Assembly (NCBI GenBank): GCA_009995495.1
Contig: JAACPL010000007.1
Coordinates: forward strand, 1 to 55,949
Length of the DNA stretch: 55,949 bases
Source of the DNA: Candidatus Falkowbacteria bacterium
GTDB lineage: Bacteria > Patescibacteriota > Patescibacteriia > Patescibacteriales > UBA12465
Direction of reading: 5' to 3'
The number at the start of each line of letters is the position of its first letter. The stretch's first letter is position 1. The notes beneath the pieces were generated by a model. The model saw only the letters and a program-made list of their open reading frames with translations, was not told the origin of the DNA and made no database searches. Both the position numbers and the translations under genes were made by a program. Shown piece by piece: positions 2,273-41,735 of this stretch.

Positions 2273-2447
2273 TCTATTAAGTTAGTTTTGATTTAACCTG
2301 AATAAATAATAAATCATAATTAGAATAAAGTAAAGATGGCTCTTGAAAATATTTTAAATTAAGTTTTTGCAAACTTTTTAAAAAATATTTTTCAGAAACA
2401 AAAAACAATGCTATAATAAATTTATAAAAATATAAAATTAAATATCT

Positions 2448-4865
2448 ATGAGTAAGAAAAAATTTGTTCTTTTTTTTGAAGAGCTAGGAATTAAAGATGT
2501 TCCTTCTGTCGGTGGTAAAAACGCCTCTCTTGGTGAGATGTTTTCTAATTTGAGCAAAAAAGGAGTGAGAATTCCTGATGGTTTTGCAACAACAGCCGAG
2601 GCTTATAATTATTTTTTTGAAGCTAACGACTTAAAGAAAAAAATTAAAAAAATAATTAAAGGTCTTGATACTCACAATGTTAAAGATTTGATGGCCAGAG
2701 GAGCGGAAATCAGAAAAACAATTATGGCGGCGGAACTTCCTCAAGATTTAAAAGATCAAGTTGCCGAAGCTTATCGCAAGTTGTCAAAAAAACATGGTGA
2801 GAAGAATTCTGATGTTGCTGTTCGTTCTAGCGCAACCGCCGAAGATTTACCAGATGCTTCTTTCGCCGGTCAGCAGGAAACCTTTCTAAATGTTCAGGGA
2901 CAAGAGGACTTAATTTTAGCAGTTAAAAAATGTATTGCTTCTCTTTTTACCGATCGGGCTATTTCTTACCGGGTAGATAAAAAGTTTGATCACTTTTCTA
3001 TTTCTCTTTCGGTCGGCGTCCAAAAAATGGTGCGAGCCGATAAGGGTTCGTCTGGTGTTATGTTTAGTATTGATACGGAATCAGGCTTTAGCGGCGTTGT
3101 TTTAATTAATTCAATCTTTGGTTTAGGAGAAAATATTGTTCAGGGAAAAGTTACTCCTGACTCATTTTTAGTTTTTAAAGAAACGGAAAAAATTATTTCT
3201 CGTTCTATCGGCACTAAAAATTTACGAATGGTTTATAATCCAGGTGGCAAAAACCCAGTTAAAGATCTACCAGTTTCAGCTAGTGACGCAAAAAAACCAT
3301 CCTTAAACGACAGCCAAGTTTTAGAGTTAGCTAAATGGGCGATGATTATTGAGGAACACTATAAAAAACCGATGGATATGGAGTTCGCTTATGATGGAAT
3401 TTCCAAAAGAATGTATATTACCCAAGCGCGACCGGAAACAGTTCAGAGTCGTAAGGATGTTAATGTTATTGAAAGTTATAAACTTGAGAAAAAAGACAAA
3501 TTAAAAGTTTTGGTTAGCGGTCAAAGTGTTGGTTCTAAAATTGGTAGTGGCGAAGTTAATAAAATAATGTCAGTTAAAGATATTTCTAAGTTTAAAGCGG
3601 GTCAGGTTTTGTTAACTGATATGACTGATCCTGATTGGGAGCCGATTATGAAAATTGCTTCGGCGATTGTGACCGATAAAGGTGGCCGAACTTGTCATGC
3701 CGCGATTGTTTCTCGTGAACTTGGGATTCCTTGTATCGTTGGGACTGAAAATGCGACGAAAAAAATTAATCCAAGACGCCAAGTAACGATTGATTGTTCT
3801 ATTGGCGAGGTTGGTTATGTTTATGAAGGAAAAATTCCTTTTCAAATTGAGACAACTGATATTAAAGGTCTTAAGAAAACTAAAACTAAAATAATGATGA
3901 ATGTTGGTGAGCCTGATATGGCTTTTCCACATTCATTTTTACCTAATGATGGAGTTGGTTTAGCTCGTTTAGAATTTATCATTAATAATTACATTAAAAT
4001 TCACCCTCTGGCTCTAGTGCATTTTGCTAAATTAAAAGATAAGAAGGCAAAAAAGACGATTGAGAAGATGACGGAAACTTATCAAAAGAAGACCGAATAT
4101 TTTGTTGATCGTTTAGCTCAAGGAGTTGCTGTTTTAGCCTCAGCTTTTTATCCTAAAGATGTAATTTTAAGACTTAGCGATTTCAAAAGTAACGAATACG
4201 CTAATTTAATTGGCGGCCGAGAGTTTGAGCCAATTGAATCAAATCCGATGATTGGTTTCAGGGGTGCTTCTCGTTATTACTCAAAGGAATTTTTACCAGC
4301 TTTTAAATTAGAATGTGAGGCAATTAAAAGAGTTAGAGAGGAAATGGGACTTAAGAATTTAAAAGTCATGGTTCCTTTCTGTCGAACAATTGAAGAAGGC
4401 AAAGAAGTTCAAAGAATTATGGCCGAATGCGGACTTAAGCGTGGTGATAAAGGCTTGGAAATTTATGTGATGGCTGAAATTCCAAGTAACATTATTTTAG
4501 CTGAAGAATTTTGTCAGATTTTTGATGGCTTTTCTATTGGTTCAAATGATTTAACTCAACTTGCTTTAGGAATTGATCGTGATTCTGGAGGAACTTTAAA
4601 AGTAATTGGTGAGGCGAATGAGAATAATAAAGCGGTTAAAACTTTAATTCGTCAATTAATTAAAGTTGCTAAGAAAAATAAACGTAAAGTTGGAATTTGT
4701 GGTCAGGCGCCAAGCGATTTTCCTGAATTCGCTGAATTTTTAGTAGAAGAAGGAATAGATAGTATTTCTTTAACTCCGGACACGGTAGTTAAAACAACAA
4801 TCGCTTTATTAAAAAAAGAAAAAGCTTTACGCCGTAGCCGTAGTATTTTAAGCTTCTTGTTTTAA
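2448..4865 (+). CDS. ppsA: phosphoenolpyruvate synthase (pyruvate, water dikinase)
   Basis: 805 aa. N-terminal GGKNASLGEM ATP-grasp region, central phospho-His swivel motif GGRTCHAAIVSRELGIP, C-terminal PEP-utilising TIM-barrel region. Confidence 0.9.
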   Translation: MSKKKFVLFFEELGIKDVPSVGGKNASLGEMFSNLSKKGVRIPDGFATTAEAYNYFFEANDLKKKIKKIIKGLDTHNVKDLMARGAEIRKTIMAAELPQDLKDQVAEAYRKLSKKHGEKNSDVAVRSSATAEDLPDASFAGQQETFLNVQGQEDLILAVKKCIASLFTDRAISYRVDKKFDHFSISLSVGVQKMVRADKGSSGVMFSIDTESGFSGVVLINSIFGLGENIVQGKVTPDSFLVFKETEKIISRSIGTKNLRMVYNPGGKNPVKDLPVSASDAKKPSLNDSQVLELAKWAMIIEEHYKKPMDMEFAYDGISKRMYITQARPETVQSRKDVNVIESYKLEKKDKLKVLVSGQSVGSKIGSGEVNKIMSVKDISKFKAGQVLLTDMTDPDWEPIMKIASAIVTDKGGRTCHAAIVSRELGIPCIVGTENATKKINPRRQVTIDCSIGEVGYVYEGKIPFQIETTDIKGLKKTKTKIMMNVGEPDMAFPHSFLPNDGVGLARLEFIINNYIKIHPLALVHFAKLKDKKAKKTIEKMTETYQKKTEYFVDRLAQGVAVLASAFYPKDVILRLSDFKSNEYANLIGGREFEPIESNPMIGFRGASRYYSKEFLPAFKLECEAIKRVREEMGLKNLKVMVPFCRTIEEGKEVQRIMAECGLKRGDKGLEIYVMAEIPSNIILAEEFCQIFDGFSIGSNDLTQLALGIDRDSGGTLKVIGEANENNKAVKTLIRQLIKVAKKNKRKVGICGQAPSDFPEFAEFLVEEGIDSISLTPDTVVKTTIALLKKEKALRRSRSILSFLF

Positions 4866-6921: not shown

Positions 6922-7623
6922 CTATGTAAGTTCTGTCATCGATGACTCTCCTCCTGAAAAAGGCAAGCTATTGAAGATAAAGTAGGTAATGGCATAAGAC
7001 GCTAGAACAATCACGAGTCCGATAACCGCATTTTTTAAAGAGGTCTGAGCCTTCTTAACTTCCTCATCATTACCTCCGGCTGTCATCCATTTAAAGCCGG
7101 CCATAATTGTTAAGACTAAGAATATTAACGCGAGGAAACTTAAAATAACGCCAATAATCGTTGCTACCAAACCGCCAACACCCATACTAACAAGCCCGGC
7201 CCCTGTAGCAACTTGTGAGGTTGATTCATCTAAGCCATTAGCAAGAGGCAAGCGTTCAAAGACAAAGACGGTCATCGTGTAGGCAGCTAGAACTACTATT
7301 AAACCGATTGTGGCATTTTTGACTGAAGTTTGAGCCTTCTTCACGTCTTCATCATTACCCCCCGCATTCATCCATTTAAAGCCAGCCATAATTGTTAAGA
7401 CTAGAAAAATCAAGCCTAAAAAGCCAAGAGCGGTTTTAATAACTATTATTGAGACAGTTTCAATGTCCGCATCTTGGAATCCAGCCCCAACTTTAAACTC
7501 ATTAGATTTTTCGTCTAAATTTAAAACAGTTGGATCAATAAGTTGCGCCTGACTTACTAAAACTGGAACAACTAAGATAAACAGGAAGAGTGTTAATTTT
7601 AAAATATTGTTCATTTTTTTCAT
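6922..7623 (-). CDS. TrbC/VirB2-like (T4SS-pilin family) protein, internal tandem duplication of the pilin unit
   Basis: Two copies of LIFLVLTIMAGFKWM(N/T)AGGNDE(D/E)VKKAQTS(V/L)KNA..GL(I/V)VVLA.Y in one ORF. I place the start at MKKMNN (7623); the upstream extension overlaps the neighbouring gene. Confidence 0.75.
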   Translation of the reverse strand: MKKMNNILKLTLFLFILVVPVLVSQAQLIDPTVLNLDEKSNEFKVGAGFQDADIETVSIIVIKTALGFLGLIFLVLTIMAGFKWMNAGGNDEDVKKAQTSVKNATIGLIVVLAAYTMTVFVFERLPLANGLDESTSQVATGAGLVSMGVGGLVATIIGVILSFLALIFLVLTIMAGFKWMTAGGNDEEVKKAQTSLKNAVIGLVIVLASYAITYFIFNSLPFSGGESSMTELT

Positions 7624-7634
7624 ATGCGTATAAT

Positions 7635-8072
7635 TTAAGAAGAAGAAGCCGCAAGTCTTGAGGCAATAAAAAACCAAATTGCCCAAGCAGAGAGAATAAC
7701 AATCAAACCGATTGTCGCTCTTTTTATATAATTAGTCGCGATTTTAACATTTTCTTCATTTCCTCCGGCCGTCATCCACTTATAACCACCAATAACAATT
7801 AAAAATATGAAAATTATACCTAATAAACTTAACGCTGCACGCACAACTTGGCCAGTAGCTGTAGCTAAACTAATGTCTTCCTTATAACCACTATCTTTAC
7901 CAATTGTTTTTAATTTATCAAGAGCTTTATTGTTTTCGCTTGCGTTTTTAAAGCTTGAGGGGTCTGGGTCAGGAGTTACTAGATTTTCAGCAAAAACGAG
8001 AAACGGAAGAACTAGAAAGGCGGTGATAATTATAATTCCGAAGAAAGCTTGAAGATGGTTTTTGATTTTCAT
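7635..8072 (-). CDS. TrbC/VirB2-like (T4SS-pilin family) small membrane protein
   Basis: Signal peptide, then two TM helices flanking GGYKWMTAGGNEENV. Confidence 0.75.
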   Translation of the reverse strand: MKIKNHLQAFFGIIIITAFLVLPFLVFAENLVTPDPDPSSFKNASENNKALDKLKTIGKDSGYKEDISLATATGQVVRAALSLLGIIFIFLIVIGGYKWMTAGGNEENVKIATNYIKRATIGLIVILSAWAIWFFIASRLAASSS

Positions 8073-8081
8073 ATTAAAAAT

Positions 8082-8480
8082 TTAAGAGGCTAGAAAAGAA
8101 AAAGCCTTGATAATAAAGTAACTTATTGCATAAGAGCCAAGAACAACAATTAAACCAATAATCGCCTGTTTAATTGTTTTTGAGGCTTCTTGAACTTTAG
8201 CCTCTTGACCACCGGCGGTCATCCAATTAAAACCGCCAAGAATTAATAAAATCATGAAGATTATTCCTATGAAAGACAGGACAATATTTATTATTTTACT
8301 AATCATCTTTTCTAGTGATACATCATCTTTTGTGTTATAGCCCGCATTATTACCAACTTCCTCTTGGACCTCTTTAAAAGCATTTTTTAAATTTCGACCA
8401 GAGCTCTCAGTATCTTGCGCTAAACAAAGACCGGGGATTAGGCTAAAAAATATGAAGCTAGCAATTATTAATTTTTTCAT
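8082..8480 (-). CDS. TrbC/VirB2-like (T4SS-pilin family) small membrane protein
   Basis: Signal peptide, then GGFNWMTAGGQEAKV between two TM helices. Confidence 0.75.
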   Translation of the reverse strand: MKKLIIASFIFFSLIPGLCLAQDTESSGRNLKNAFKEVQEEVGNNAGYNTKDDVSLEKMISKIINIVLSFIGIIFMILLILGGFNWMTAGGQEAKVQEASKTIKQAIIGLIVVLGSYAISYFIIKAFSFLAS

Positions 8481-8482
8481 AA

Positions 8483-8863
8483 TTAAGTAAGATAGGGCTC
8501 GGAAAAGAATTGAACGATAAAGTAACTAAGAGCGTAAGCTACTAAAATAATTAAAACTCCAATAACACTTTGAATGAACATTTTTTTTGCTTTTTCAACT
8601 TCAGCCTCATTTCCTCGAGCGGTCATCCATTTAAAGCCAGCCACAATTGTTAGTATTAAAAATAAAACACCAACAAAAGTTAGAACTAGTTTTATTCCTT
8701 GTACGATCATGCCATCAATAGATTTTTGTTCGTCAACATACCCTGCTTTCCCGGCAGTTATATTTAAACCGCTATTTTCTTCAAAATCATAAGCCAAAAC
8801 TAATATCGGCGAAATTATTCCAGCTAAAATTAAATATTTTATTTTTTTAACTAGGGTTTTCAT
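8483..8863 (-). CDS. TrbC/VirB2-like (T4SS-pilin family) small membrane protein
   Basis: AGFKWMTARGNEAEV motif with the same architecture. Its start codon overlaps the stop of the upstream paralog by 1 nt (TAATG). Confidence 0.75.
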   Translation of the reverse strand: MKTLVKKIKYLILAGIISPILVLAYDFEENSGLNITAGKAGYVDEQKSIDGMIVQGIKLVLTFVGVLFLILTIVAGFKWMTARGNEAEVEKAKKMFIQSVIGVLIILVAYALSYFIVQFFSEPYLT

Positions 8864-9273
8864 TAGTTTGCAAATTGGTTACCTATAAAGCTAGTTATTG
8901 TGTAAGCGGAAAGAACAATTAAAAGACCAATAATAGCGTTTATTATTATTGTTTTAGCTTTTTCTACTTTTTGCTCATTACCTCCGGCAGTCATCCAATT
9001 TATACCACCGTAAATTGTTAAAATTAAAAATAAGACTCCAATAAAAGAAAGGACGAAGCCAATCATATCGCCAAGTTTAGTAGCAATAAATTTTTCGTCA
9101 TAGGGCTCATTAGTATTGATTTGTTCCTGATAAGCTGGAACTACATTAGCCGCTTCATTTAAGCCTTTTAAGACATCTTCTGAAGCAGCGTTTTGAGCCA
9201 ACACTGAAGAGGAAAAAGTAAAAAATAAAAATAAAAAAAAGATTACCGGAAAAAAGAATTTAAATTTTTTCAT
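8863..9273 (-). CDS. TrbC/VirB2-like (T4SS-pilin family) small membrane protein
   Basis: GGINWMTAGGNEQKV motif with the same architecture. Confidence 0.75.
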   Translation of the reverse strand: MKKFKFFFPVIFFLFLFFTFSSSVLAQNAASEDVLKGLNEAANVVPAYQEQINTNEPYDEKFIATKLGDMIGFVLSFIGVLFLILTIYGGINWMTAGGNEQKVEKAKTIIINAIIGLLIVLSAYTITSFIGNQFAN

Positions 9274-9297
9274 AAAGAAATTATTTGAGATAAATTC

Positions 9298-9346
9298 ACT
9301 GCCTTAATTAAAAGAGGAATTCCTGAAGACTTTTAATTAAGGCAGT
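9298..9346 (-). repeat. perfect 17-bp inverted repeat (stem-loop) between the first and second pilin genes
   Basis: actgccttaattaaaag (9298-9314) and its exact reverse complement (9330-9346). The 15-nt loop contains ggaattcc. No U-run follows on the coding strand. Confidence 0.6.
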
Positions 9347-9382
9347 AAATCCTAATTACTTAGGACTACTGACTAAAGTATC

Positions 9383-9781
9383 TTAATTACTGACGGTTGT
9401 ACTAATATTTTCAATTAACCAAGTTGCTAGACCCCATGAGGCTAGAACAATAATTAAACCGACAACACCAGCGCCTAGAAGTTTCTTTGCTTCTCCGGTT
9501 TTTTCTTCGCTACCACCAGAAGTCATCCATTTAAATCCACCGATTAAAATGATACTTACAGCAATTAAGCCAAGGAAACCAAGGGCAAATTTAATAAAAC
9601 GGCCGATGACTTCACGAGGATCTTGCTCAACATCACCAAGAGATCCACCTAAACCATCTTCAACTAGTTGTGTGCCATATGGATCATTGTCTGTTTGAGC
9701 TAATGCTGGTAAAGCAAAAACTGGAACCAAAAAGGCAGCGACAATTGCGAAAGCTGCTAAATTTTTTAATAATTTTTTCAT
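9383..9781 (-). CDS. TrbC/VirB2-like (T4SS-pilin family) small membrane protein, promoter-proximal paralog
   Basis: GGFKWMTSGGSEEKT motif. Strong Shine-Dalgarno sequence (aaaggtggtg), a putative promoter upstream, and more G+C-rich codons than the downstream paralogs. Confidence 0.75.
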   Translation of the reverse strand: MKKLLKNLAAFAIVAAFLVPVFALPALAQTDNDPYGTQLVEDGLGGSLGDVEQDPREVIGRFIKFALGFLGLIAVSIILIGGFKWMTSGGSEEKTGEAKKLLGAGVVGLIIVLASWGLATWLIENISTTVSN

Positions 9782-22624: not shown

Positions 22625-22777
22625 CCACACATTAGTAATTACACTTGACAATACCTGAAAAAATGCTATTTTAACTATATTAGTGATTTGATATCTTATA
22701 ATAATCACAAAAAACAGGCGTTAGCCTGTTTTTATAACAGAACTTTTAAAATTAAATATAAATTTAAAAAAGAGAAA

Positions 22778-23290
22778 ATGAAGAGTGAGATTACGCGTCC
22801 TATGTCTTTGGGTAAAGTAATAGAAATCCCATCATGTGATGGTTCAGAGAAAATCTGTGGAGATCGCACAACTTTTGTTTCCGGAATTGATGGTGATTTT
22901 TCCAAACTAACATCTTTGGGTATAAACACGGGCCCGACAAAAATTGAAATTTACGAAATTGTTAAAGATGGGACTTTTTATAGCGCTTTTTCCGGATTAG
23001 ACCGAAACTGGAATCGGAAGTGGTTATCACAGCATCAGGTAATTAGTTTCTGTAAAAATTTCTCAACTTTTTTAAGATTGGGTGGTAATTGCACCTTTAT
23101 CTTAATTAAAAAAGATGAGCAACTTCCCGTTAATGAGCTTAATCCGCTGGAAAATTTGGCGCCGGTTCAAATTTATGTTAGAGGTGGAAGTCGTCAAATA
23201 GCTTTACGTGAGCTGGATTGTGACATTATTTGGAAGGGTAAGGATAAAAATAGGCTCATTATCCCTTGTTTTCAGCCATGTCTAAGATAA
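22778..23290 (+). CDS. hypothetical protein
   Basis: I place the start at MKSEITRP (22778), downstream of a terminator hairpin at 22708-22733. An intrinsic terminator lies at 23296-23331. No family recognised. Confidence 0.45.
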   Translation: MKSEITRPMSLGKVIEIPSCDGSEKICGDRTTFVSGIDGDFSKLTSLGINTGPTKIEIYEIVKDGTFYSAFSGLDRNWNRKWLSQHQVISFCKNFSTFLRLGGNCTFILIKKDEQLPVNELNPLENLAPVQIYVRGGSRQIALRELDCDIIWKGKDKNRLIIPCFQPCLR

Positions 23291-28726: not shown

Positions 28727-28809
28727 AAATTAAGCATATCGGAAAAATTGGATAATGTATAGATTGGAGAGAGTTTTTTAGACAAAAGCGTGAAAAAATA
28801 TTATTTTGC

Positions 28810-28838
28810 TTGACATTATCTAATATATATGATATAAT
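28810..28838 (+). promoter_or_regulatory. consensus sigma70 promoter now facing into the IS30 element
   Basis: TTGACA (28810-28815), exactly 17 nt, TATAAT (28833-28838). It ends 6 nt before the IS outer inverted repeat. Confidence 0.5.
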
Positions 28839-28844
28839 ACTTTG

Positions 28845-30074
28845 AATGCTTAAATGGTCGATTCACCCCCGAAGTGCACCACCGGCACATTTAGCTAAGT
28901 TAGCAAGTTGCTGTTTAAAATATTCACTATTTAATATACCATTTTCTAGGTAATGAGTCTTTAAGGACTCTTTTTTTATATCCTTTAGCATATTCTCATT
29001 AAGCATAACCTCAAAAGGAGTGAGTCCACCTAAAGATTTTCTTGGTTTGAAATTAAAGAGAGTCTCAACATACTTAATATATTCATCTGAGTATTGTGAT
29101 AAGTCTGAGCCCTTCTTAAAATATCTCCTGAGCCAAAGATTAGCATTCTCAACGGATCCTTTTTCCCAGGGAGAATAAGGAGTACAAAAATATACTTGTT
29201 CAATATTCATTTTTTCCCACTTAGAATTTTCTTTTCCATTATCTAGCGTTAAACTATCTATTCTTTCTAGTTTTATGCTTGCTTCTTTAATTGATTTATT
29301 AAATTGTTCACTGGTAGCCCTGTCAATCTTTTTTAGATGCAAATACCTTCCTTTTCGATCAATCATTACCGATATAGCCGCTTTTCCTATGATGTTTTCT
29401 TTTCTTCCCGAAACGATTAGGTCAGCTTCCTTGTGTCCGCATCTAGCTCTTTTAGCTATATGTTTAGGTCTCATTTCAATCCCTATCCGATTTGGTATTA
29501 TTTCTTTTTTGGTTTTATTTTTCTTTTGCTTCTTAACCTTCTTTCGTTTTGAATATAGATATTGACAATATGGTTGCCCCCGCCAATCTGCCCGGAGCCA
29601 TTCATAAATAGCAGTTTTAGAAATATGTTTATTCAATTCTTTTTTTGATCGTGAATTAATATCGCTAGGCGACCAACCAATCTCTAGATGAGAGGTGACA
29701 TATTCTAATATTACCAGATCATAATTTATTTTTTTCCAATCAAACCGAGCATACTTCTTTTTAACATAGGCTTTATGAGAAGCTAGATTAGCATCATATT
29801 TACCAACTATTCGCCCCTCACCATTCTTCTTACCCCTTTTAATAACTCGACTGTATTTTATGAGCTCTCTACTAATGGTGCCGTGGTCTCTCCCCAAAAC
29901 TTTTGCCACATCCACAATGGAATACCCTTGGCTTCTTAATATATCTATTCTGTCTCTCTCGTTCTGACTCAGATGACTATATGTCCTTTGAGTCTTTTTT
30001 GTTGTATTTTTCATGGTTTTATTATACGGCCATAGTGGTGCACTTCAAAACGGAATTTCCCAATATTAAGCATT
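28845..30074 (-). mobile_element. IS30-family insertion sequence (about 1.2 kb)
   Basis: A single transposase ORF is flanked by imperfect terminal inverted repeats. The core gaagtgcaccacc (28871-28883) pairs with ggtggtgcacttc (30034-30046). The outer aatgcttaa (28845-28853) pairs with ttaagcatt (30066-30074). Confidence 0.8.
28863..30014 (-). CDS. IS30-family DDE transposase
   Basis: N-terminal HTH (SQNERDRIDILRSQGYSIVDVAKVLGRDHGTISRE). DDE region H.EADLI..., LTLDNGKEN, PYSPWEKGSVENANLWLRRYFPKG-like. Confidence 0.85.
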   Translation of the reverse strand: MKNTTKKTQRTYSHLSQNERDRIDILRSQGYSIVDVAKVLGRDHGTISRELIKYSRVIKRGKKNGEGRIVGKYDANLASHKAYVKKKYARFDWKKINYDLVILEYVTSHLEIGWSPSDINSRSKKELNKHISKTAIYEWLRADWRGQPYCQYLYSKRKKVKKQKKNKTKKEIIPNRIGIEMRPKHIAKRARCGHKEADLIVSGRKENIIGKAAISVMIDRKGRYLHLKKIDRATSEQFNKSIKEASIKLERIDSLTLDNGKENSKWEKMNIEQVYFCTPYSPWEKGSVENANLWLRRYFKKGSDLSQYSDEYIKYVETLFNFKPRKSLGGLTPFEVMLNENMLKDIKKESLKTHYLENGILNSEYFKQQLANLAKCAGGALRG

Positions 30075-30129
30075 ACCCAATTTCGCAGGGATTGCGAAAA
30101 TAGTTTTTTAACAATTAAATAGTGTTATT

Positions 30130-30336
30130 ATGGAAAAAAGTAGCCAAAATCCCAGTTTCGGACAAGGGCTGGAACTTGCCGGTATTATCATCAAAGCACT
30201 CGCTAGCGCTGCCAAGAAAACCAACGCCGATTCAGACAGAGTCCAGGCAGTAATCGGCAAGCCCGGAGTAGTTTTTCAGCTGATTGAAGGTCTGTTTGCG
30301 GAAGACGGAAAAATATTTTTAATTAAAAAATTATAA
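30130..30336 (+). CDS. small hypothetical ORF upstream of the DGR template repeat
   Basis: 68-aa ORF, more G+C-rich than the local background, with no obvious Shine-Dalgarno sequence. Coding status is uncertain. Confidence 0.3.
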   Translation: MEKSSQNPSFGQGLELAGIIIKALASAAKKTNADSDRVQAVIGKPGVVFQLIEGLFAEDGKIFLIKKL

Positions 30337-30419
30337 GTTGGTATAAGGCGCTTGAGGACTTTTAAGTCCCGAATAATATTCAGTCGCTTCTTTCGTATTC
30401 GTCAGAGCGACGGTGAAAC

Positions 30420-30552
30420 CGGAAGGCGCTTTATACAATTTCGTGGTCAACGTGAACGTGCATTCTGACGGTCTGAATGTCAACGTGAATCGCCTTGAGA
30501 ATGACAATGTCTGGAATGGCGAGTATCGTCATCGCGTTGTCTCCCCGCAACT
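30420..30552 (+). other. candidate DGR template repeat (TR)
   Basis: A relatively G+C-rich stretch whose only open frame carries nine AAY (Asn) codons within 28 codons (30437-30520) and ends ...WNGEYRHRVVSP. That frame is closed upstream by a TAA at 30374, so this is not a gene 3' end. It lies next to avd and RT. The boundaries are approximate. Confidence 0.55.
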
Positions 30553-30554
30553 TA

Positions 30555-30938
30555 TTAGTTTCTCCTTCGTTCGTTCGAGGGAGTTTTATTTTCCAATCCC
30601 TTTTTCCAACCACCGAGCATGCGCCCGATTTCATCAAGTTGTTCAGATAAGGCAGAGTATTTTATATTAGCAAGACACTTATTTTCCCAAGCCAGTTGTA
30701 AAAAAAATTTTAAGCTGTCTAACTTTAAAATGGCTATTGATAATTGAGCCGATTTCCTTTCCCCAGACAAATATACTGTTATAAAAGTATTTTCCAAAAG
30801 TGATAAAAAATTATTTTCAATTTTCCCTCCTAAATTGTAGCGATAAATTTTAGGAAAACTACTCAAGACACTAAACCAAAGACTATAAGCTTCTTTTGTT
30901 TTGATGAGAACTACTGGCGGTCTAAGTGATGCATTCAT
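30555..30938 (-). CDS. avd: four-helix-bundle protein, DGR accessory variability determinant (Avd)-like
   Basis: 127 aa with the size and helical pattern of the 23S-rRNA-IVS/Avd family (KEAYSLW...FPK..RY.LG.KIEN..L.LLE....A......K...L......LD.LK..L.LA.E...L....Y..L...L.EIG.MLGGW). Adjacent to a DGR-type RT. Confidence 0.7.
   Translation of the reverse strand: MNASLRPPVVLIKTKEAYSLWFSVLSSFPKIYRYNLGGKIENNFLSLLENTFITVYLSGERKSAQLSIAILKLDSLKFFLQLAWENKCLANIKYSALSEQLDEIGRMLGGWKKGLENKTPSNERRRN
30562..30592 (+). terminator. hairpin plus T-run directly after the TR (inside the avd 3' end, antisense)
   Basis: ctccttcg-ttcgtt-cgagggag (8-bp stem including one G-U pair) followed by ttttatttt. Confidence 0.4.
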
Positions 30939-30947
30939 AAATTTATA

Positions 30948-31943
30948 ATGAAAAAATTTATTAAAACTTACAGTGAAATTGTTACTATTTCTAATTTACT
31001 TTTAGCTTGGGAAGAGTTTCTTGTTGGAAAAAAGAAACGAAGGGATGTGGTTATTTTTCAGGGGCGACTGATGAATAATATTTTTAACCTCTATCATGAT
31101 TTAAAAGAAAAAAATTATTGCCACAGTGATTATCAAGCTTTTAAAATTTCAGATCCTAAACCCAGAAATATTCATAAGGCCATAGTTCGCGACAGGCTAC
31201 TCCACCACTTACTTTACCAAGAAACTTATCAGTATTTTGACCAACAATTTATTTACGACTCTTATTCTTGTCGTCTAAACAAAGGTACTCATCGCGCTAT
31301 TAGTCGTTTGGCTGAGTTTAAAGATAAAGTTTCGGAGAATAATTATAAAACAGTTTGGGTTCTTAAATGTGATATTAAAAAATTTTTTGCCAGCATTAAT
31401 CATAAAATTTTAAAGAATATTTTAGTTAAGTATATTGAGGATCGGGACTTGCTTTGGTTGTTTGGACAAGTGATTGATAGTTTTAATACGCCTGGAAAAA
31501 TTGGCATCGGACTACCATTGGGAAATCTGACCTCGCAGTTATTAGTTAATATTTACATGAATGAATTTGATCAATTTGTTAAACGGACTTTAAAAATAAA
31601 ATACTATCTTCGCTATGCAGACGACTTTTTATTTTTAAAGGATAATAAAGAAGAATTAATTTCTTTGCGAACAAAATTAGAAATATTTTTAAATGAACAC
31701 TTATGCCTGACGCTACATCCAAATAAAACTTTTTTAAAAACCATAGCCAGTGGTGTTGATTTTTTGGGTTGGGTACAATTTTCTGAACATAGAACCCTGA
31801 GAACGATAACGAAGCGACGCATGTTTAAAAAAATTAAACAGAATAATAAGCCAGCGACCAAGGCTTCTTATTTGGCAATGTTAAAACATGGCAATGCTCA
31901 TAAGTTAACCAAAGTGGCTGGTTTAGTTAACGAAAAATTATAA
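30948..31943 (+). CDS. DGR-type reverse transcriptase
   Basis: 331 aa. RT motifs include LPLGNLTSQLLVNIYMNEFD (the [I/L]GxxxSQ signature that distinguishes DGR RTs) and RYADDFLFL (YxDD box). Confidence 0.85.
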   Translation: MKKFIKTYSEIVTISNLLLAWEEFLVGKKKRRDVVIFQGRLMNNIFNLYHDLKEKNYCHSDYQAFKISDPKPRNIHKAIVRDRLLHHLLYQETYQYFDQQFIYDSYSCRLNKGTHRAISRLAEFKDKVSENNYKTVWVLKCDIKKFFASINHKILKNILVKYIEDRDLLWLFGQVIDSFNTPGKIGIGLPLGNLTSQLLVNIYMNEFDQFVKRTLKIKYYLRYADDFLFLKDNKEELISLRTKLEIFLNEHLCLTLHPNKTFLKTIASGVDFLGWVQFSEHRTLRTITKRRMFKKIKQNNKPATKASYLAMLKHGNAHKLTKVAGLVNEKL

Positions 31944-31949
31944 CATTTT

Positions 31950-32146
31950 TTGACAATTAACGCAATAAATATTATAGAGTCGCCTGCCCTTGACTTTTTC
32001 ATAAACATTAGCTAGGCTTGAAGGGTAAAAAGAATATTTTAATATCTTTCCCAAAACTGAAGCAATTCAGTTAAGTTCCCTTGAAACAAAGTGGAGCTAA
32101 AGGTATTTCTTAACCCCAACGTTTTAGGAAATACTTGGGGTTTTTA
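31950..32146 (+). promoter_or_regulatory. promoter-to-terminator unit (candidate leader or small RNA) between RT and rpsF
   Basis: TTGACA (31950-31955), 17 nt, TATAGA (31973-31978). Several short hairpins follow. Then ccccaa...ttgggg plus T5 (32114-32146), about 100 nt before rpsF. Confidence 0.3.
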
Positions 32147-32243
32147 TTTAATATTTAATAAAAATTTAAAATATAAATAAAAGGAAAGGCTTTAGAAATT
32201 ATTTAAATTTTTTTTAAGTAATATTCAGGGCTAATCCTATAAA

Positions 32244-32783
32244 ATGATTATGTCAAAAACCAAGAAGACCGGTGCCGGTCATTATGAAATCTTGTTCATT
32301 GTTCCTAATAAATTTACTGAAGATGAGGCGAAAAAAATCGCTACTAAGGTTGACGCAATGATTGTTGAGACTGAGGGGAAAGTAACTTTCAGTGAATTTT
32401 GGGGAAAAAAGAAATTAGCCTATAAGATTAAAAATAACGAATACGGCTATTATGGTCTATTTGAATTTGATCTAGAAAAGGAGAATTTGGCTAAAATTGA
32501 TAACAATCTTCGTTTATCAACTGAGATTTTACGTCACCAAATCGTTATTAAGAAAATAAAAACTGAAGCTGAATTAAAACGAGAGGAAGAAATTCGCGTT
32601 AAAATTGATTCTAAAAAAGCCAAAGAAGTAAAAGTTGAAAAAACGGGGGTAAAAAAGGATTTTAAAGAAGAAAAAACTGATAAAACTACCAGCGTGAAAA
32701 AAGCCGTTGCTTCAAAGAGCTCTGGCTTAAAAGAGTTGGATGAAAAATTAGAAGGAATCCTTAATGCCGACGATTTAATTTAA
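32244..32783 (+). CDS. rpsF: 30S ribosomal protein S6 with Lys/Glu-rich C-terminal extension
   Basis: YEILFIV......E.A..I......I...G......E.WGKKKLAY.I......GYY..FEF pattern. Operon context with ssb and rpsR. Confidence 0.85.
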   Translation: MIMSKTKKTGAGHYEILFIVPNKFTEDEAKKIATKVDAMIVETEGKVTFSEFWGKKKLAYKIKNNEYGYYGLFEFDLEKENLAKIDNNLRLSTEILRHQIVIKKIKTEAELKREEEIRVKIDSKKAKEVKVEKTGVKKDFKEEKTDKTTSVKKAVASKSSGLKELDEKLEGILNADDLI

Positions 32784-38898: not shown

Positions 38899-40404
38899 AT
38901 GCACAACATTATTAAACGAGTGGCTCTTTTTTTGTTACTAATTTTGGTTTTAATCGGTGTGGGTAATTACGGCACGGTCGAAGCGGCCAAGAAATCTAAT
39001 AGATGCTTTTTACAATTTACGGCAGTTCCTCTAAATGAAAATATTAACTCGGGGGCTGAGACTACTTATCGTTATGCTGTAAAAAATATCGGTGCCACTA
39101 TGTGTAACGAGGTAGCGGTATCTTTATATTATGCTGAGAACGAAAAATATATAAATTCAAATCCTTTGCCAACTGCTTCGGATTATTATTGGTCCATCGG
39201 AAAACTTAATCGCGGTCAAACATTTTATTTTTCCGTGGTTATAAAAAACATTAATGGTGGCGAGCAGATGCTTGGGGAAGGTTGAGCCTCTGCTAATAAT
39301 GCTGATGATGCTTGCGTTAGCACCTCGGTCAACATAACAACAACTCCAACGATTGATTATCCAGAGCCTGTTGTGCTTGATGAAGCCCCACCCTTGGTAA
39401 TGGAAGAAATTGAGCCGATAATAGTAGACGAAGTGGAGCCGGTAATAATTCCGGTATTACCAATAGTTATTCCTAAGATAGACGAGCCAAACTCCATCAA
39501 TATCCAAGCTTGGGTTTATCCAGGCCAGCCAGCTTGTAATGCCACTAATGAATATTCTGATGGCAGACAAATAGATACATTAAAACCGGAATATTATACA
39601 GTTCAAAGCACGGGGGCGTTAAGACAATTAACCGCCTCTTCAGATGGTTGTAATGGTTATAGCGCTAGTAATGTCGCTGACATCAAAGCACACTCTAGTG
39701 AGCAATTTGTAACCGTGTCAGGTCATATTAGTAATGTAAGAAAATTACTTTCTTCGACATTATTACAATCAGCAGCGATAAAAACTTTAACAGATTTTAC
39801 TGTTTCTAGTGGATTTACTGGCGTAGAAATTGATTGGGAGGGTTTTGGTGACTGGACTGTTACTGATTACAATAATTACAAAAAATTTATCGCTGATTTA
39901 CAAACTAGTTTGCGCGCTAAGGGAAAGTTTTTAATGATAGACGCGCCAGCTATTTCTGATGCTAAATATCAGAGTTATTTTTTATTCAAATATGAAGATT
40001 TTGTAGATGTAGATTACGTCGCTATTATGGCTTATGACTATCAATATGATTATGGTGTTGGCCAACCAGTAGCTCCAGAAGTCTGGGTTAAAAATGTTGT
40101 TGATTGGGCAAAAGCTCGTTTAGATGTGAATCAAATAATTATTGGTATTGCTAATTATGAATATCACGGTCCGGTAGGAAGTTATAATGTGTCGATTGAT
40201 ACCTATACTCAATCCTCTTCTTATAACGGGTTTTCTACTAGAAAGTTGAATGCCGAAGGTGAAGAAGTTTGGACATCAGGGGGAACTTATTATGCGGCAC
40301 AAAGCGTGGCTGCGCTCGATAAGAGAAAGGCTTTTATTGAGTCGTTGGGAATAAAAAGTATTTCCGTTTGGCACCTAGGGGGCAATAAATGGTTTAGTAA
40401 TTAA
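38899..40404 (+). pseudogene. GH18 (chitinase/YaaH-like) secreted protein, single reading frame interrupted by one in-frame TGA at 39283-39285
   Basis: Track ORFs 38899-39285 and 39373-40404 are in the same frame, with no other stop between them. The N-terminal part has a signal peptide and a CARDB/DUF11-like beta domain. The C-terminal part has the GH18 core FTGVEIDWEGF. The paralog on the opposite strand is intact. Confidence 0.6.
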
Positions 40405-41735
40405 AACCATAGGTTTCCTCCTAAATGCCAAATTGAGATTGAGTCAATTCCTAAGTTTTTAATTGTTTGTATTTTTTTAACCAAACTTTCAGAGTCTTGG
40501 TAAAAATAAGTATTGCCAGCCTCTTCCCAGGTCATCTCAAAAGAATTAGGGTCCCGTTTAGCGTTAGCGAAACCGGGCTCTTTTTCTATCTGAGAATAAG
40601 TTAAAAGAGAGAAGCGATTGGCACCAGTTGGTCCTTTATATCCATAAGAGGGAACGCCGATAGAAAGTTTTGCCTTGTTTGGGAATTTCCCTAAAGTGAA
40701 TTTTATAGTTTCTTGAATCCAGGTGATGGGCGCAACTGGTTGACCAGCGCCGTGATCATATTGGTAGTCATATAGCATAATTACTAATTTATCAATTGGT
40801 AAATTATTAAAATCGCTATAGCGCCAAACGTACCAAGCCTCTTCTACTGCGTTTGAAGTTGCCGGGCCATCAATCATTAATTTTTTATTCTTAGCATGTA
40901 GAGCATTTCCTAGCTTAGTTATGAATTCTTTATATTTTTGATATGAAGAAGCTGACCAACCGCCGAAGTCTTCAAAATCTATTTCTAGACCCGTTATTTT
41001 ATTATCTACCGTAAAGGCAACAAGAGTATCAATATTAGTTGAGTTTTCTAAAGATTCAGTTAAAAATAAATCCATACTTCCAGCGTAGGAAGAAGAAATA
41101 GTAGCATATTGTTCTTTTGAGTAACCTCTTACACTCTCAACGTTAGCAGGGGAATATCCATTGCAACCGCGATTTTCTACGGTTAATAAAACTAATTTGC
41201 CATCTTCATTGATTGTAAAATATTCGGGTTTTAAAATATCTATTTTTCGACCATCAGAATATTCTGCTTTAACATTACAAACTGTTGCCCCAGGATATAT
41301 CCAGGCCATAATTTCTTTTTGAGTAATTGATGTCGGTAGTTCTGGCGCGGGAGTTTCTATGATTTGAACGGAAGAATCGCTATTTGTGGTTGGAACAAAA
41401 ATATCTGAAGAATTAGGATTCGTTATTTCTGAAGAAGAAGCATTGGAGAGATTTTCTTTGTCATTTAGATTTTCCTGTGCTCTCTCTATATCCTTGTTTT
41501 CTAAAATAACATCATTCGTACTAGTGGAGCTTGTGTCGGCGATAAAAATTTGGTTGGTATCGGCGACACTAATTTCACTATTAGCGGTTTCCATTGAAGT
41601 AGTAGTATTAATTAGCGAAAATTTTTTATTAATAGTGTTTTGATATATTACTATAAATATTATTATTAAAATGGCAACCGCTAAAATAGCCAGAGAATAT
41701 ATTGAAATTTTTGTATTAAGTAATGATTTTAACAT
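40401..41735 (-). CDS. GH18 (chitinase/YaaH-like) glycoside hydrolase, membrane-anchored
   Basis: N-terminal TM segment, Ser/Thr/Asn-rich linker, and a GH18 core ITGLEIDFEDF. It aligns by eye with 39373-40404 (IMAWIYPG..VCN...EYSDGRKIDILKPEYF...). Confidence 0.75.
   Translation of the reverse strand: MLKSLLNTKISIYSLAILAVAILIIIFIVIYQNTINKKFSLINTTTSMETANSEISVADTNQIFIADTSSTSTNDVILENKDIERAQENLNDKENLSNASSSEITNPNSSDIFVPTTNSDSSVQIIETPAPELPTSITQKEIMAWIYPGATVCNVKAEYSDGRKIDILKPEYFTINEDGKLVLLTVENRGCNGYSPANVESVRGYSKEQYATISSSYAGSMDLFLTESLENSTNIDTLVAFTVDNKITGLEIDFEDFGGWSASSYQKYKEFITKLGNALHAKNKKLMIDGPATSNAVEEAWYVWRYSDFNNLPIDKLVIMLYDYQYDHGAGQPVAPITWIQETIKFTLGKFPNKAKLSIGVPSYGYKGPTGANRFSLLTYSQIEKEPGFANAKRDPNSFEMTWEEAGNTYFYQDSESLVKKIQTIKNLGIDSISIWHLGGNLWF

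Follow-up and report, generated by a model that had tools for sequence, protein, structure and literature searches.

The mechanistic prototype of the DGRs, that of Bordetella phage BPP-1, has the order mtd-avd-TR-brt and combines an RT, Avd and a template repeat (TR) of about 115-135 nt with adenine-specific mutagenesis; structured RNA flanks the TR, with a stem-loop just 3' of it. Such stem-loops lie just downstream of the TR in 207 of 278 Avd-type DGRs (bioRxiv 10.1101/2023.10.23.563531). Among CPR bacteria, 90% of the DGRs have architecture B3, TR-(avd)-RT (Wu et al. 2018, NAR 46:11, PMC5758913), and these correspond to DGR clade 2 of Roux et al. (2021, PMC8144416). Remote-target DGRs, found for example in Legionella, in cyanobacteria and as lineage 4 of Wu et al., have a core with no adjacent variable repeat (VR), intact TR transcription units and remote VRs that can be demonstrated. 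Over half of the candidate DGRs of Wu et al. (PMC5758913) were discarded on account of stops, truncations or poor TR-VR matches, and the same study warns against assuming DGR function.

We analysed a stretch of 55,949 bp (the window) from an uncultured groundwater Patescibacteria (Falkowbacteria-like) bacterium, in which a DGR core is located on the chromosome among housekeeping genes. The core comprises the following features.

30948-31943, plus strand: RT gene, intact, 331 aa (Pfam RVT_1, 71 bits)
30555-30938, minus strand: avd, 127 aa (Pfam bAvd PF22296, 54.4 bits, cut-off 40)
30439-30553, plus strand: TR, 115 nt long (25 adenines), which abuts the 3' end of avd
30562-30583, plus strand: hairpin and T-run directly 3' of the TR, overlapping the final codons of avd (opposite strand)

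This element is a member of a known family and its organisation is not new, since the order TR (plus), avd (minus), RT (plus) is that of architecture B3. We consider it quite probable that the window holds an ordinary DGR, with the gene order typical of its lineage, that was orphaned by the loss of its cis target and is now decaying.

The RT carries LGNLTSQ at residues 191-197, an instance of the [I/L]GxxxSQ motif that it shares with the CPR B3 DGRs, and YADD at residues 223-226. At every invariant column of an alignment of 45 family sequences it has the conserved residue, and homologues 57-95% identical to it sit in cassettes with adenine-specific TR/VR pairs. The Avd, which scores 66 bits against NCBIfam DivGenRetAVD (NF033474) and so stays under the cut-off of 80, could be aligned with 15 homologues, and its strand and position are alike in all relatives. 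The original prediction of a 331-aa RT with these two motifs next to a 127-aa Avd-like protein is thus borne out, both by the Pfam matches and by the conserved RT residues. It is scarcely credible that the RT is instead of the retron, group II intron or defence (Abi/DRT) type and merely neighbours a four-helix-bundle protein. Relatives are labelled 'retron-type' or 'RT/maturase' in the source databases, and NCBIfam models of group II RTs, Drt3a and retrons do give sub-threshold matches, but the scores fall far short (132 bits against a cut-off of 300 for group II TIGR04416; 59 bits against 235 for retron St85) and no Rfam group II intron or retron RNA was found in 29900-32300 at E up to 1. The LGNLTSQ motif, the adenine-specific TR/VR cassettes of the homologues and a TR homologous to functional TRs likewise argue against such an RT.

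The start codons of avd and the RT gene are divergent, with 9 bp between them (30939-30947), and the TR precedes avd, all as first described. This layout had been taken as unusual or undescribed, but it is the published B3 arrangement (PMC5758913) and recurs in all related loci examined. An opposite-strand avd adjoins the RT gene in 66 of the 66 related loci with enough upstream sequence; in 64 of these a TR adjoins the 3' end of avd and a VR is present (0-2 non-A and 5-18 A mismatches per 60 nt), and the other two (L067 and L089) have no detectable VR. The window also resembles the CPR B3 DGRs in its opposite-strand avd directly upstream of the RT gene, in its TR on the RT strand at the avd 3' end, in host lineage and chromosomal place among housekeeping genes, and in the homology of its TR to TRs that template VRs. 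It departs from them in keeping only the first 60 or so codons of the target gene, in having lost the VR and its hairpin together with the TR-RNA promoter and 5' leader domain, and in the IS30 element that lies in the target promoter region. With BPP-1 the system shares RT, Avd, a TR of similar length, adenine-specific mutagenesis (here seen in the relatives) and structured RNA around the TR, including the stem-loop just 3' of it. Unlike BPP-1, it has another gene order and avd strand, a large structured RNA 5' of the TR, a 3' flank antisense to avd and a target family without a recognisable C-type-lectin protein, and the window is without a VR.

The limits of the TR were set where homology to the TR/VR pairs of relatives starts and stops. 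The G+C-richer template, its AAY codons and the in-frame TAA at 30374, which had drawn attention to this stretch, are all present (GC 0.51, against about 0.30 nearby), although the TR is better set at 30439-30553. It is homologous to the TRs of L011-L014, L016 and L018, where the VRs differ at adenines, aligns with the TRs of 16 relatives and is close to the family consensus. Identity to the L018 TR is 94% over 194 nt, with seven differences inside the repeat, and the L018 VR has mismatches only at adenines, so that the template in the window goes beyond a chance likeness. Among 10 assemblies of the window locus, the sole TR polymorphism is G/A at 30536. Judging by sequence, the hairpin at 30562-30583 is likely to be the terminator of the TR RNA, an Avd-binding stem-loop or both; a terminator-like site is found here and at the equivalent place in L018, and the hairpin is kept in relatives.

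RT, TR and Avd are thus all in place, and no VR was found on either strand of the 55,949 bp. In an ungapped, adenine-tolerant scan the best non-A match was 0.63-0.64, which is background, in agreement with the earlier failure to see a second TR copy by eye. Searches with adenine-masked TR patterns (a 52-mer against genome contigs and a 37-mer against metagenome contigs) gave no matches and missed the window's own TR as well. Since the masked pattern is present in 10 of 10 fetched copies of the locus, the scanned collections do not contain the source locus, and these scans are uninformative rather than negative evidence.

The VR is absent because a deletion removed most of the target gene: compared with close relatives (RT 95% and 82% identical), about 680 bp are missing from the window. 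The region around the deletion contains the following features.

30130-30336, plus strand: target-gene remnant, a 68-aa ORF made of the first 60 or so target codons and then running out of frame into the leader
30307-30314, plus strand: deletion junction, an 8-9-bp microhomology, GGAAAAAT, common to target codons 60-62 and the TR leader
30315-30438, plus strand: retained 3' part of the leader, in which clade-consensus helices 6-8 survive, along with the 3' strand of helix 3

The remnant, which lacks the VR and about 160 target codons, is 91% identical in nucleotide sequence to the 5' end of the L014 target and 92% identical in amino-acid sequence to residues 26-87 of the L018 target. Positions 1514-1722 of L014 align to window 30062-30270 (91%) and positions 2438-4260 to window 30307-32129 (94%), while L014 1723-2437, which contains the VR at 2117-2234, is without a counterpart in the window; the comparison with L018 agrees. 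The blastn edges fall at L014 2438 (window 30307) and at L018 6260 (window 30314), and GGAAAAAT is found at both sites in L018 and in the L014 leader. A deletion between the two copies of this sequence joined target codon 60 or thereabouts to the middle of the leader. Lost with it were the VR and the hairpin downstream of it, as well as the promoter of the TR RNA and the 5' domain of the leader. Homologous recombination between VR and TR was considered as the cause and rejected, since the TR-specific leader at 30315-30438 still lies upstream of the repeat.

Metagenome assemblies can break at hypervariable VRs, so the missing target might be an artefact of assembly or binning in which such a VR was collapsed or dropped. 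This is very improbable here. The deletion is present in 10 of 10 independent assemblies from different samples; 10 of 10 independent contigs (JGI, ENA) share the junction, the 68-aa ORF and the IS30 element, at 99.8-99.98% identity over the locus; and the sequence around the junction is unique, the join itself falling at a microhomology and not at a contig end. The 68-aa ORF is called in each of the 10 independent assemblies shown and was seen on 16 contigs.

The region upstream of the remnant carries an insertion and, beyond it, a promoter.

28856-30061, minus strand: IS30-family IS of 1206 bp with a transposase ORF at 28863-30014 (NCBIfam transpos_IS30 NF033563, 190 bits, cut-off 80)
28810-28838, plus strand: consensus promoter of the former target gene, TTGACA-17-TATAAT with TG, a 12/12 match

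Besides the transposase, the element has the terminal inverted repeats of its family (about 27 bp, imperfect overall; their 12-nt core, at 28871-28882 and 30035-30046, matches perfectly) and a duplication within the 2-3 bp of IS30 elements, AAT at 28853-28855 and 30062-30064; the corresponding site in L014 is empty. It lies 65 bp ahead of the target's start codon and cuts the consensus promoter off from the remnant ORF. An equivalent 12/12 promoter is found in L018 directly upstream of the intact target gene. The insertion may have come before or after the deletion. IS30 itself was rejected as the cause of target loss, since it shows a plain insertion that duplicated 3 bp and lies 240 bp from the junction. 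The target-gene stump, the deletion of about 680 bp and the IS30 element in the target promoter region had all been missed when the locus was first described.

Intact cassettes of this lineage run from the target with its VR through a terminator hairpin, a promoter and the structured leader to the TR, followed by the opposite-strand avd and the RT gene. From an extended -10 promoter that lies shortly after the target gene, intact relatives would make a discrete RNA composed of a folded leader of about 240 nt, the 115-nt TR and the terminal hairpin. RT and Avd would then copy the TR, making errors at its adenines, and the resulting cDNA would replace the VR about 440 bp upstream; for both steps we follow the Bordetella paradigm and the adenine-only TR/VR mismatches. 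A covariance model of the 5' leader domain has matches in 56 of 87 related loci, and this conservation suggests that the domain is required. The window has no match to that model, and nhmmer agrees, while the profile of the 3' domain matches at 30326-30439 (E 1e-29). The cassette has nothing left to diversify in cis, and it probably no longer makes a proper TR RNA. For these two reasons, no cis target and a TR RNA that is probably not properly made, we regard the element as orphaned and at an early stage of decay. The loss was probably recent, since RT, Avd and TR are still intact. Of the three possibilities raised in the original prediction (a remote target, an orphaned and decaying element, or an undescribed organisation), the second is thus supported by the deletion and the IS30 insertion, and the third falls away.

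The first of these, an RT-Avd-TR core still active on a remote target after its cis target was lost or became redundant, is unlikely but has several points in its favour. RT, Avd and TR are intact, with the invariant RT residues kept; the RT changes on the window branch are 16 synonymous and one non-synonymous, and dN/dS between the window and L014 is 0.06-0.11. The low non-synonymous change and the intact core would fit either a very recent loss or a core that is still selected, for instance through a remote target. The TR is near the family consensus and keeps its 25 adenines, some relatives (L023, L025, L027, L042 and L077) have non-adjacent VRs, for instance beyond the RT gene on its downstream side or at a distance of 2 kb upstream, and the 56 kb or so examined amount to about 5-10% of a typical CPR genome. 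Against these stand the deletion of a conserved TR-RNA promoter and of a 5' leader domain that 56 related loci possess, the lack of a VR in the window and the candidate targets, none of which could be attributed to the window TR. A paralogue of the target family in the window (22688-23290) was rejected because it has no nucleotide similarity to the TR. The target of L018, an intact DGR found in a sample where the window locus occurs too (GC 39% versus 33%, no genes shared), was rejected as a trans target because its VR fits its own TR and has five non-A conflicts with that of the window. When 120 target-family proteins were screened for codon-level fit to the window TR, two were fully compatible, and both serve other DGRs, from other samples, as cis targets, so that 0 of 120 are attributable to the window TR; this screen is not discriminating, as TR scaffolds are nearly identical across the clade. 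Like the remote-target DGRs, the window has a core with no adjacent VR; unlike them, it keeps the stump of a cis target and its TR-RNA unit is partly deleted. We find it quite doubtful that the core works in trans now that its cis target is gone, together with the promoter of the TR RNA and the conserved 5' domain of the leader. If it did, it would be a remote-target DGR in the CPR clade, for which only cis targets have been described, and the 5' leader domain would be dispensable.

The core might also be kept for a function that needs no VR, such as the production of cDNA for another purpose; we know of no precedent for this and hold it to be improbable. The one point in its favour is that RT and Avd are intact after the loss of the target, and it is opposed by the loss of the TR-RNA promoter and 5' domain and by the variants that segregate in the population. 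These comprise Avd E103K and RT H257Y, both at invariant residues, and an RT variant with a C-terminal frameshift, and together they hint at relaxed constraint. The signal is weak because polymorphism in the flanking housekeeping genes is also half non-synonymous (three of six), and the population SNPs are too few to tell the cassette from the flanking genes.

As an orphaned and decaying DGR, the element matters little in itself, being one more inactivated example. What sets it apart from the inactivated or incomplete DGRs of surveys is that close relatives allow its lesions to be traced base by base. It thus provides a base-resolved case of DGR death, in which a microhomology deletion took the VR and the TR-RNA promoter and an IS entered the target promoter. 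The lesson is that, where an RT/Avd/TR core lacks a VR, comparison with close relatives should come before any proposal of a new organisation or a remote target.

Two features of the family as a whole are perhaps worth separate attention. One is the target itself. The intact targets of the relatives have no Pfam match and no sequence match in PDB, and the AF2 model of the target (pLDDT 88) has no match in PDB or BFVD (best E 0.36 and 0.18, TM about 0.15). By this model, the intact targets do not appear to have the C-type-lectin fold of the Mtd/TvpA type, and the suggestion that the window TR resembles templates for that fold did not hold up, given targets in the clade with no Pfam, PDB or BFVD match. 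The family, of about 220 aa, combines a lack of known structural matches with a confident predicted fold. The other feature is the large RNA leader 5' of the TR, which is absent from Rfam (searches with the window and L018 returned nothing) and is supported by covariation. In its fold, 52 of 64 pairs show compensatory changes across 16 relatives, and 94% of the leader cells are paired, compared with 42-50% when the partners are slid, values that 0 of 500 shuffles reach.

The window holds a diversity-generating retroelement (DGR) of the known Patescibacteria B3 type, which has lost its variable repeat (VR) through a deletion of ~680 bp and carries an IS30 element in the promoter of its target gene.

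Features of the DGR locus in the window
28810-28838: consensus promoter (12/12 match), separated from the 68-aa ORF by the IS30 element
28856-30061: IS30 element, 1206 bp, with ~27-bp imperfect terminal repeats
28863-30014: IS30-family transposase gene (NF033563, 190 bits), directly upstream of the core
30130-30336: ORF of 68 aa, directly upstream of the core
30439-30553, plus strand: template repeat (TR)
30555-30938, minus strand: Avd, 127 aa (PF22296, 54.4 bits)
30948-31943, plus strand: reverse transcriptase (RT), 331 aa (Pfam RVT_1, 71 bits)

The RT contains both LGNLTSQ and YADD and keeps all invariant columns of a 45-member family alignment. The PF22296 cut-off for Avd is 40 bits; against NCBIfam DivGenRetAVD the protein scores 66 bits (cut-off 80). 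The TR is the AAY-rich, G+C-richer plus-strand stretch directly past the avd 3' end, and 9 bp separate the start codons of avd and RT. An ungapped scan of both strands of the whole window, scoring only non-adenine positions, found no second TR copy; the best non-A match fraction (0.63-0.64) equals background. The original prediction of a DGR core lacking a VR in the window is thus confirmed.

That prediction had also flagged the organisation as unusual, but it is the typical state: this layout was already defined as architecture B3, "TR-(avd)-RT" (Wu et al. 2018, PMC5758913), and prevails in the relatives surveyed. RT homologues number in the thousands. In the related loci L011-L014, L016 and L018 (RT identity 73-95%) the order is invariant, with a target of ~220 aa (+), a spacer of ~300 nt, TR (+), avd (-), ~9 bp and RT (+), and their TR/VR alignments are textbook, with mismatches at TR adenines only. 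We surveyed 80 loci from GTDB representative genomes; in 66 of them the sequence reached 900 nt or more upstream of the RT gene. Throughout these 66, avd adjoins the RT gene on the opposite strand. In 64, a TR flanks avd at its 3' end and is accompanied by a VR, usually on the same strand and ~440 bp upstream, that differs from it per 60 nt at 5-18 adenines and 0-2 other positions. No VR was detected in two of the 66 (L067 and L089). Between the VR (2118-2232) and TR (2570-2684) of L014, differences occur at 13 adenines and 12 non-adenine positions, the latter mostly L014-specific TR changes. With 12 non-synonymous changes on its RT branch beside 12 synonymous ones, this DGR may be in independent decay.

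The deletion emerges from comparison with L014, the closest relative (RT 95% identical). Using blastn, L014 2438-4260 aligned with window 30307-32129 (94%) and L014 1514-1722 with window 30062-30270 (91%), while the intact L014 target gene (222 aa) occupies 1582-2250, with its VR at 2117-2234. Given these boundaries and coordinates, the 68-aa ORF is the 5' end of the target gene. Residues 26-87 of the L018 target match window 30130-30315 at 92%. Relative to both L014 and L018, ~680 bp are missing from the window, and the junction falls inside GGAAAAAT (30307-30314). The intact L018 has the junction motif twice, in the gene (…GAAGACGGAAAAATC…) and in the leader, the RNA 5' of the TR (…AGGGAAAATG…), which points to a microhomology-mediated deletion; at this motif the L014 leader reads AGGAAAAATATTTTT. 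The lost segment comprises ~160 target-gene codons including the VR, the long hairpin that follows it, an extended -10 promoter (TGTATAAT) that all 16 aligned relatives conserve, and the first ~100 nt of the TR-carrying transcript.

The target ATG is 65 bp downstream of the IS30 element, which is flanked by an AAT duplication (28853-28855 and 30062-30064), L014 representing the empty site. In L018, whose target gene is intact, the equivalent of the promoter at 28810-28838 directly precedes that gene. IS30 is ruled out as the cause of the deletion, since the junction is 240 bp away. The 5' untranslated region of the target remnant has a hairpin with a T-run at 30081-30099 (+), conserved in L014, which may regulate the target gene or act as its attenuator. 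L014 also has a Fic-domain gene (437-1309) between a methyltransferase gene and the DGR target, absent from the window near 28779.

The ~240 nt from promoter to TR were aligned in 16 relatives. The consensus leader fold has 8 helices and 64 pairs, with compensatory changes in 52 of them; 94.2% of cells are paired, compared with 42-50% after the partners were shifted by 1-3 columns, and 0 of 500 shuffles reached the observed values. The lost RNA domain is a structured and conserved element. Two leader hairpins share the conserved loop GGUYAMGGCU. The leader spans 6838-7080 in L018 and 2338-2580 in L014; the window retains only its 3' part (30315-30438). Of 87 related loci, 56 gave full-length matches to a 113-position covariance model of the 5' domain, always on the plus strand and ~640-780 nt upstream of the RT gene. 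The window gave none, and nhmmer recovered only the 3' domain there (30326-30439, E 1e-29). No Rfam 15 family matched the leader region of the window or L018. We found no prior description of this leader; one published analysis covered only 40 nt upstream of TRs. cDNA synthesis by the Bordetella DGR requires RNA on both sides of the TR, and stem-loops directly 3' of TRs are widespread (bioRxiv 10.1101/2023.10.23.563531); the window still has a 3' hairpin with a T-run (30562-30583). The conservation of the 5' domain suggests that it would be required in this DGR clade.

The identical RT protein is found on at least 22 contigs (JGI and ENA assemblies), and the ten of them that were compared all share the gene order, IS30 element and 68-aa ORF included, with 99.8-99.98% identity to the window across 5.5 kb. 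The locus is real and stable, and its host belongs to the Patescibacteria (CPR). Relatives are annotated as Candidatus Falkowbacteria, and the DGR lies among housekeeping genes (S6, SSB, S18, EF-P and YchF).

Taken together, the DGR is probably an orphan in an early phase of decay, one of the options originally proposed. Continued use of the core is favoured by the intact RT, Avd and TR and by the substitution pattern: with L018 as outgroup, the window RT branch has 16 synonymous changes and 1 non-synonymous change (12 and 12 on the L014 branch), and comparison with L014 gives dN/dS values of 0.11 (RT) and 0.06 (avd). However, the promoter and 5' domain are gone and the VR is absent from 56 kb. 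Population variants also hit invariant residues (Avd E103K, 16/16 homologues; RT H257Y) or shift the RT C-terminal frame, a weak signal since 3/6 flanking-gene SNPs are non-synonymous too. That the core acts on a remote target is improbable: Wu et al. (2018, PMC5758913) report single cis targets as the rule in CPR DGRs and place remote targets in another lineage only. On the simplest reading, the loss occurred late on the 1.7% branch but predates the ~0.1% population diversity. The finding of an orphaned DGR is itself of low novelty.

Public collections scanned with adenine-masked TR patterns yielded no hit, not even the TR of the window itself, so these scans carry no weight against a remote target. 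Indirect tests for such a target came out negative. An intact DGR of the same family, L018, co-occurs with a copy of the window locus (L007) in ENA sample ERZ27293359 (contig k141_817169, 6001-9391), between dnaJ and tatD/ATP synthase genes; its RT is 82% identical to that of the window, its GC is 39% versus 33%, and no genes are shared. Its VR was rejected as the window's target, fitting the L018 TR and showing 5 non-A conflicts with the window TR. Of 120 proteins of the target family, only two fit the window TR fully, and both are cis targets belonging to other DGRs from other samples. Within the population, polymorphisms are concentrated in the cassette (30227, 30536, 30632, 30635 and 30678; protein variants P0263, P0264 and P0265): G/A at 30536 in the TR, D102N, E103K and a synonymous K87 change in Avd, A33D in the 68-aa ORF, and H257Y, an E-to-K change and the C-terminal frameshift in RT.

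The ~220-aa targets of this clade (L014 1582-2250, L018 6001-6750 and homologues P0121-P0240) have an N-terminal helical part followed by an alpha/beta domain with the VR at its end. They have no Pfam or PDB sequence match, and a confident AlphaFold (AF2) model (pLDDT 88, pTM 0.71) has no significant structural match in PDB or BFVD, so the proposed analogy to C-type-lectin templates is not supported; the family may be an undescribed variable-protein scaffold. A distant paralogue at window 22688-23290 (+; 28% identity to the L018 target, E 8.5e-17) has no similarity to the TR and is therefore not diversified. L018 (8723-9391) and L012 (11091-11765) have similar paralogues directly after the RT gene, with no VR detected.

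Elsewhere in the window, 6922-9781 (-) contains six or seven small paralogous ORFs in tandem, ~126-145 aa long except for the first, which is listed as 254 aa; the array includes a 171-nt repeat with copies 60-75% identical (families D1 and D2). At 39373-41735, a long inverted repeat arises from two convergent paralogues of glycoside hydrolase family 18; its arms, at 39508-39600 and 41214-41306, are 74% complementary.
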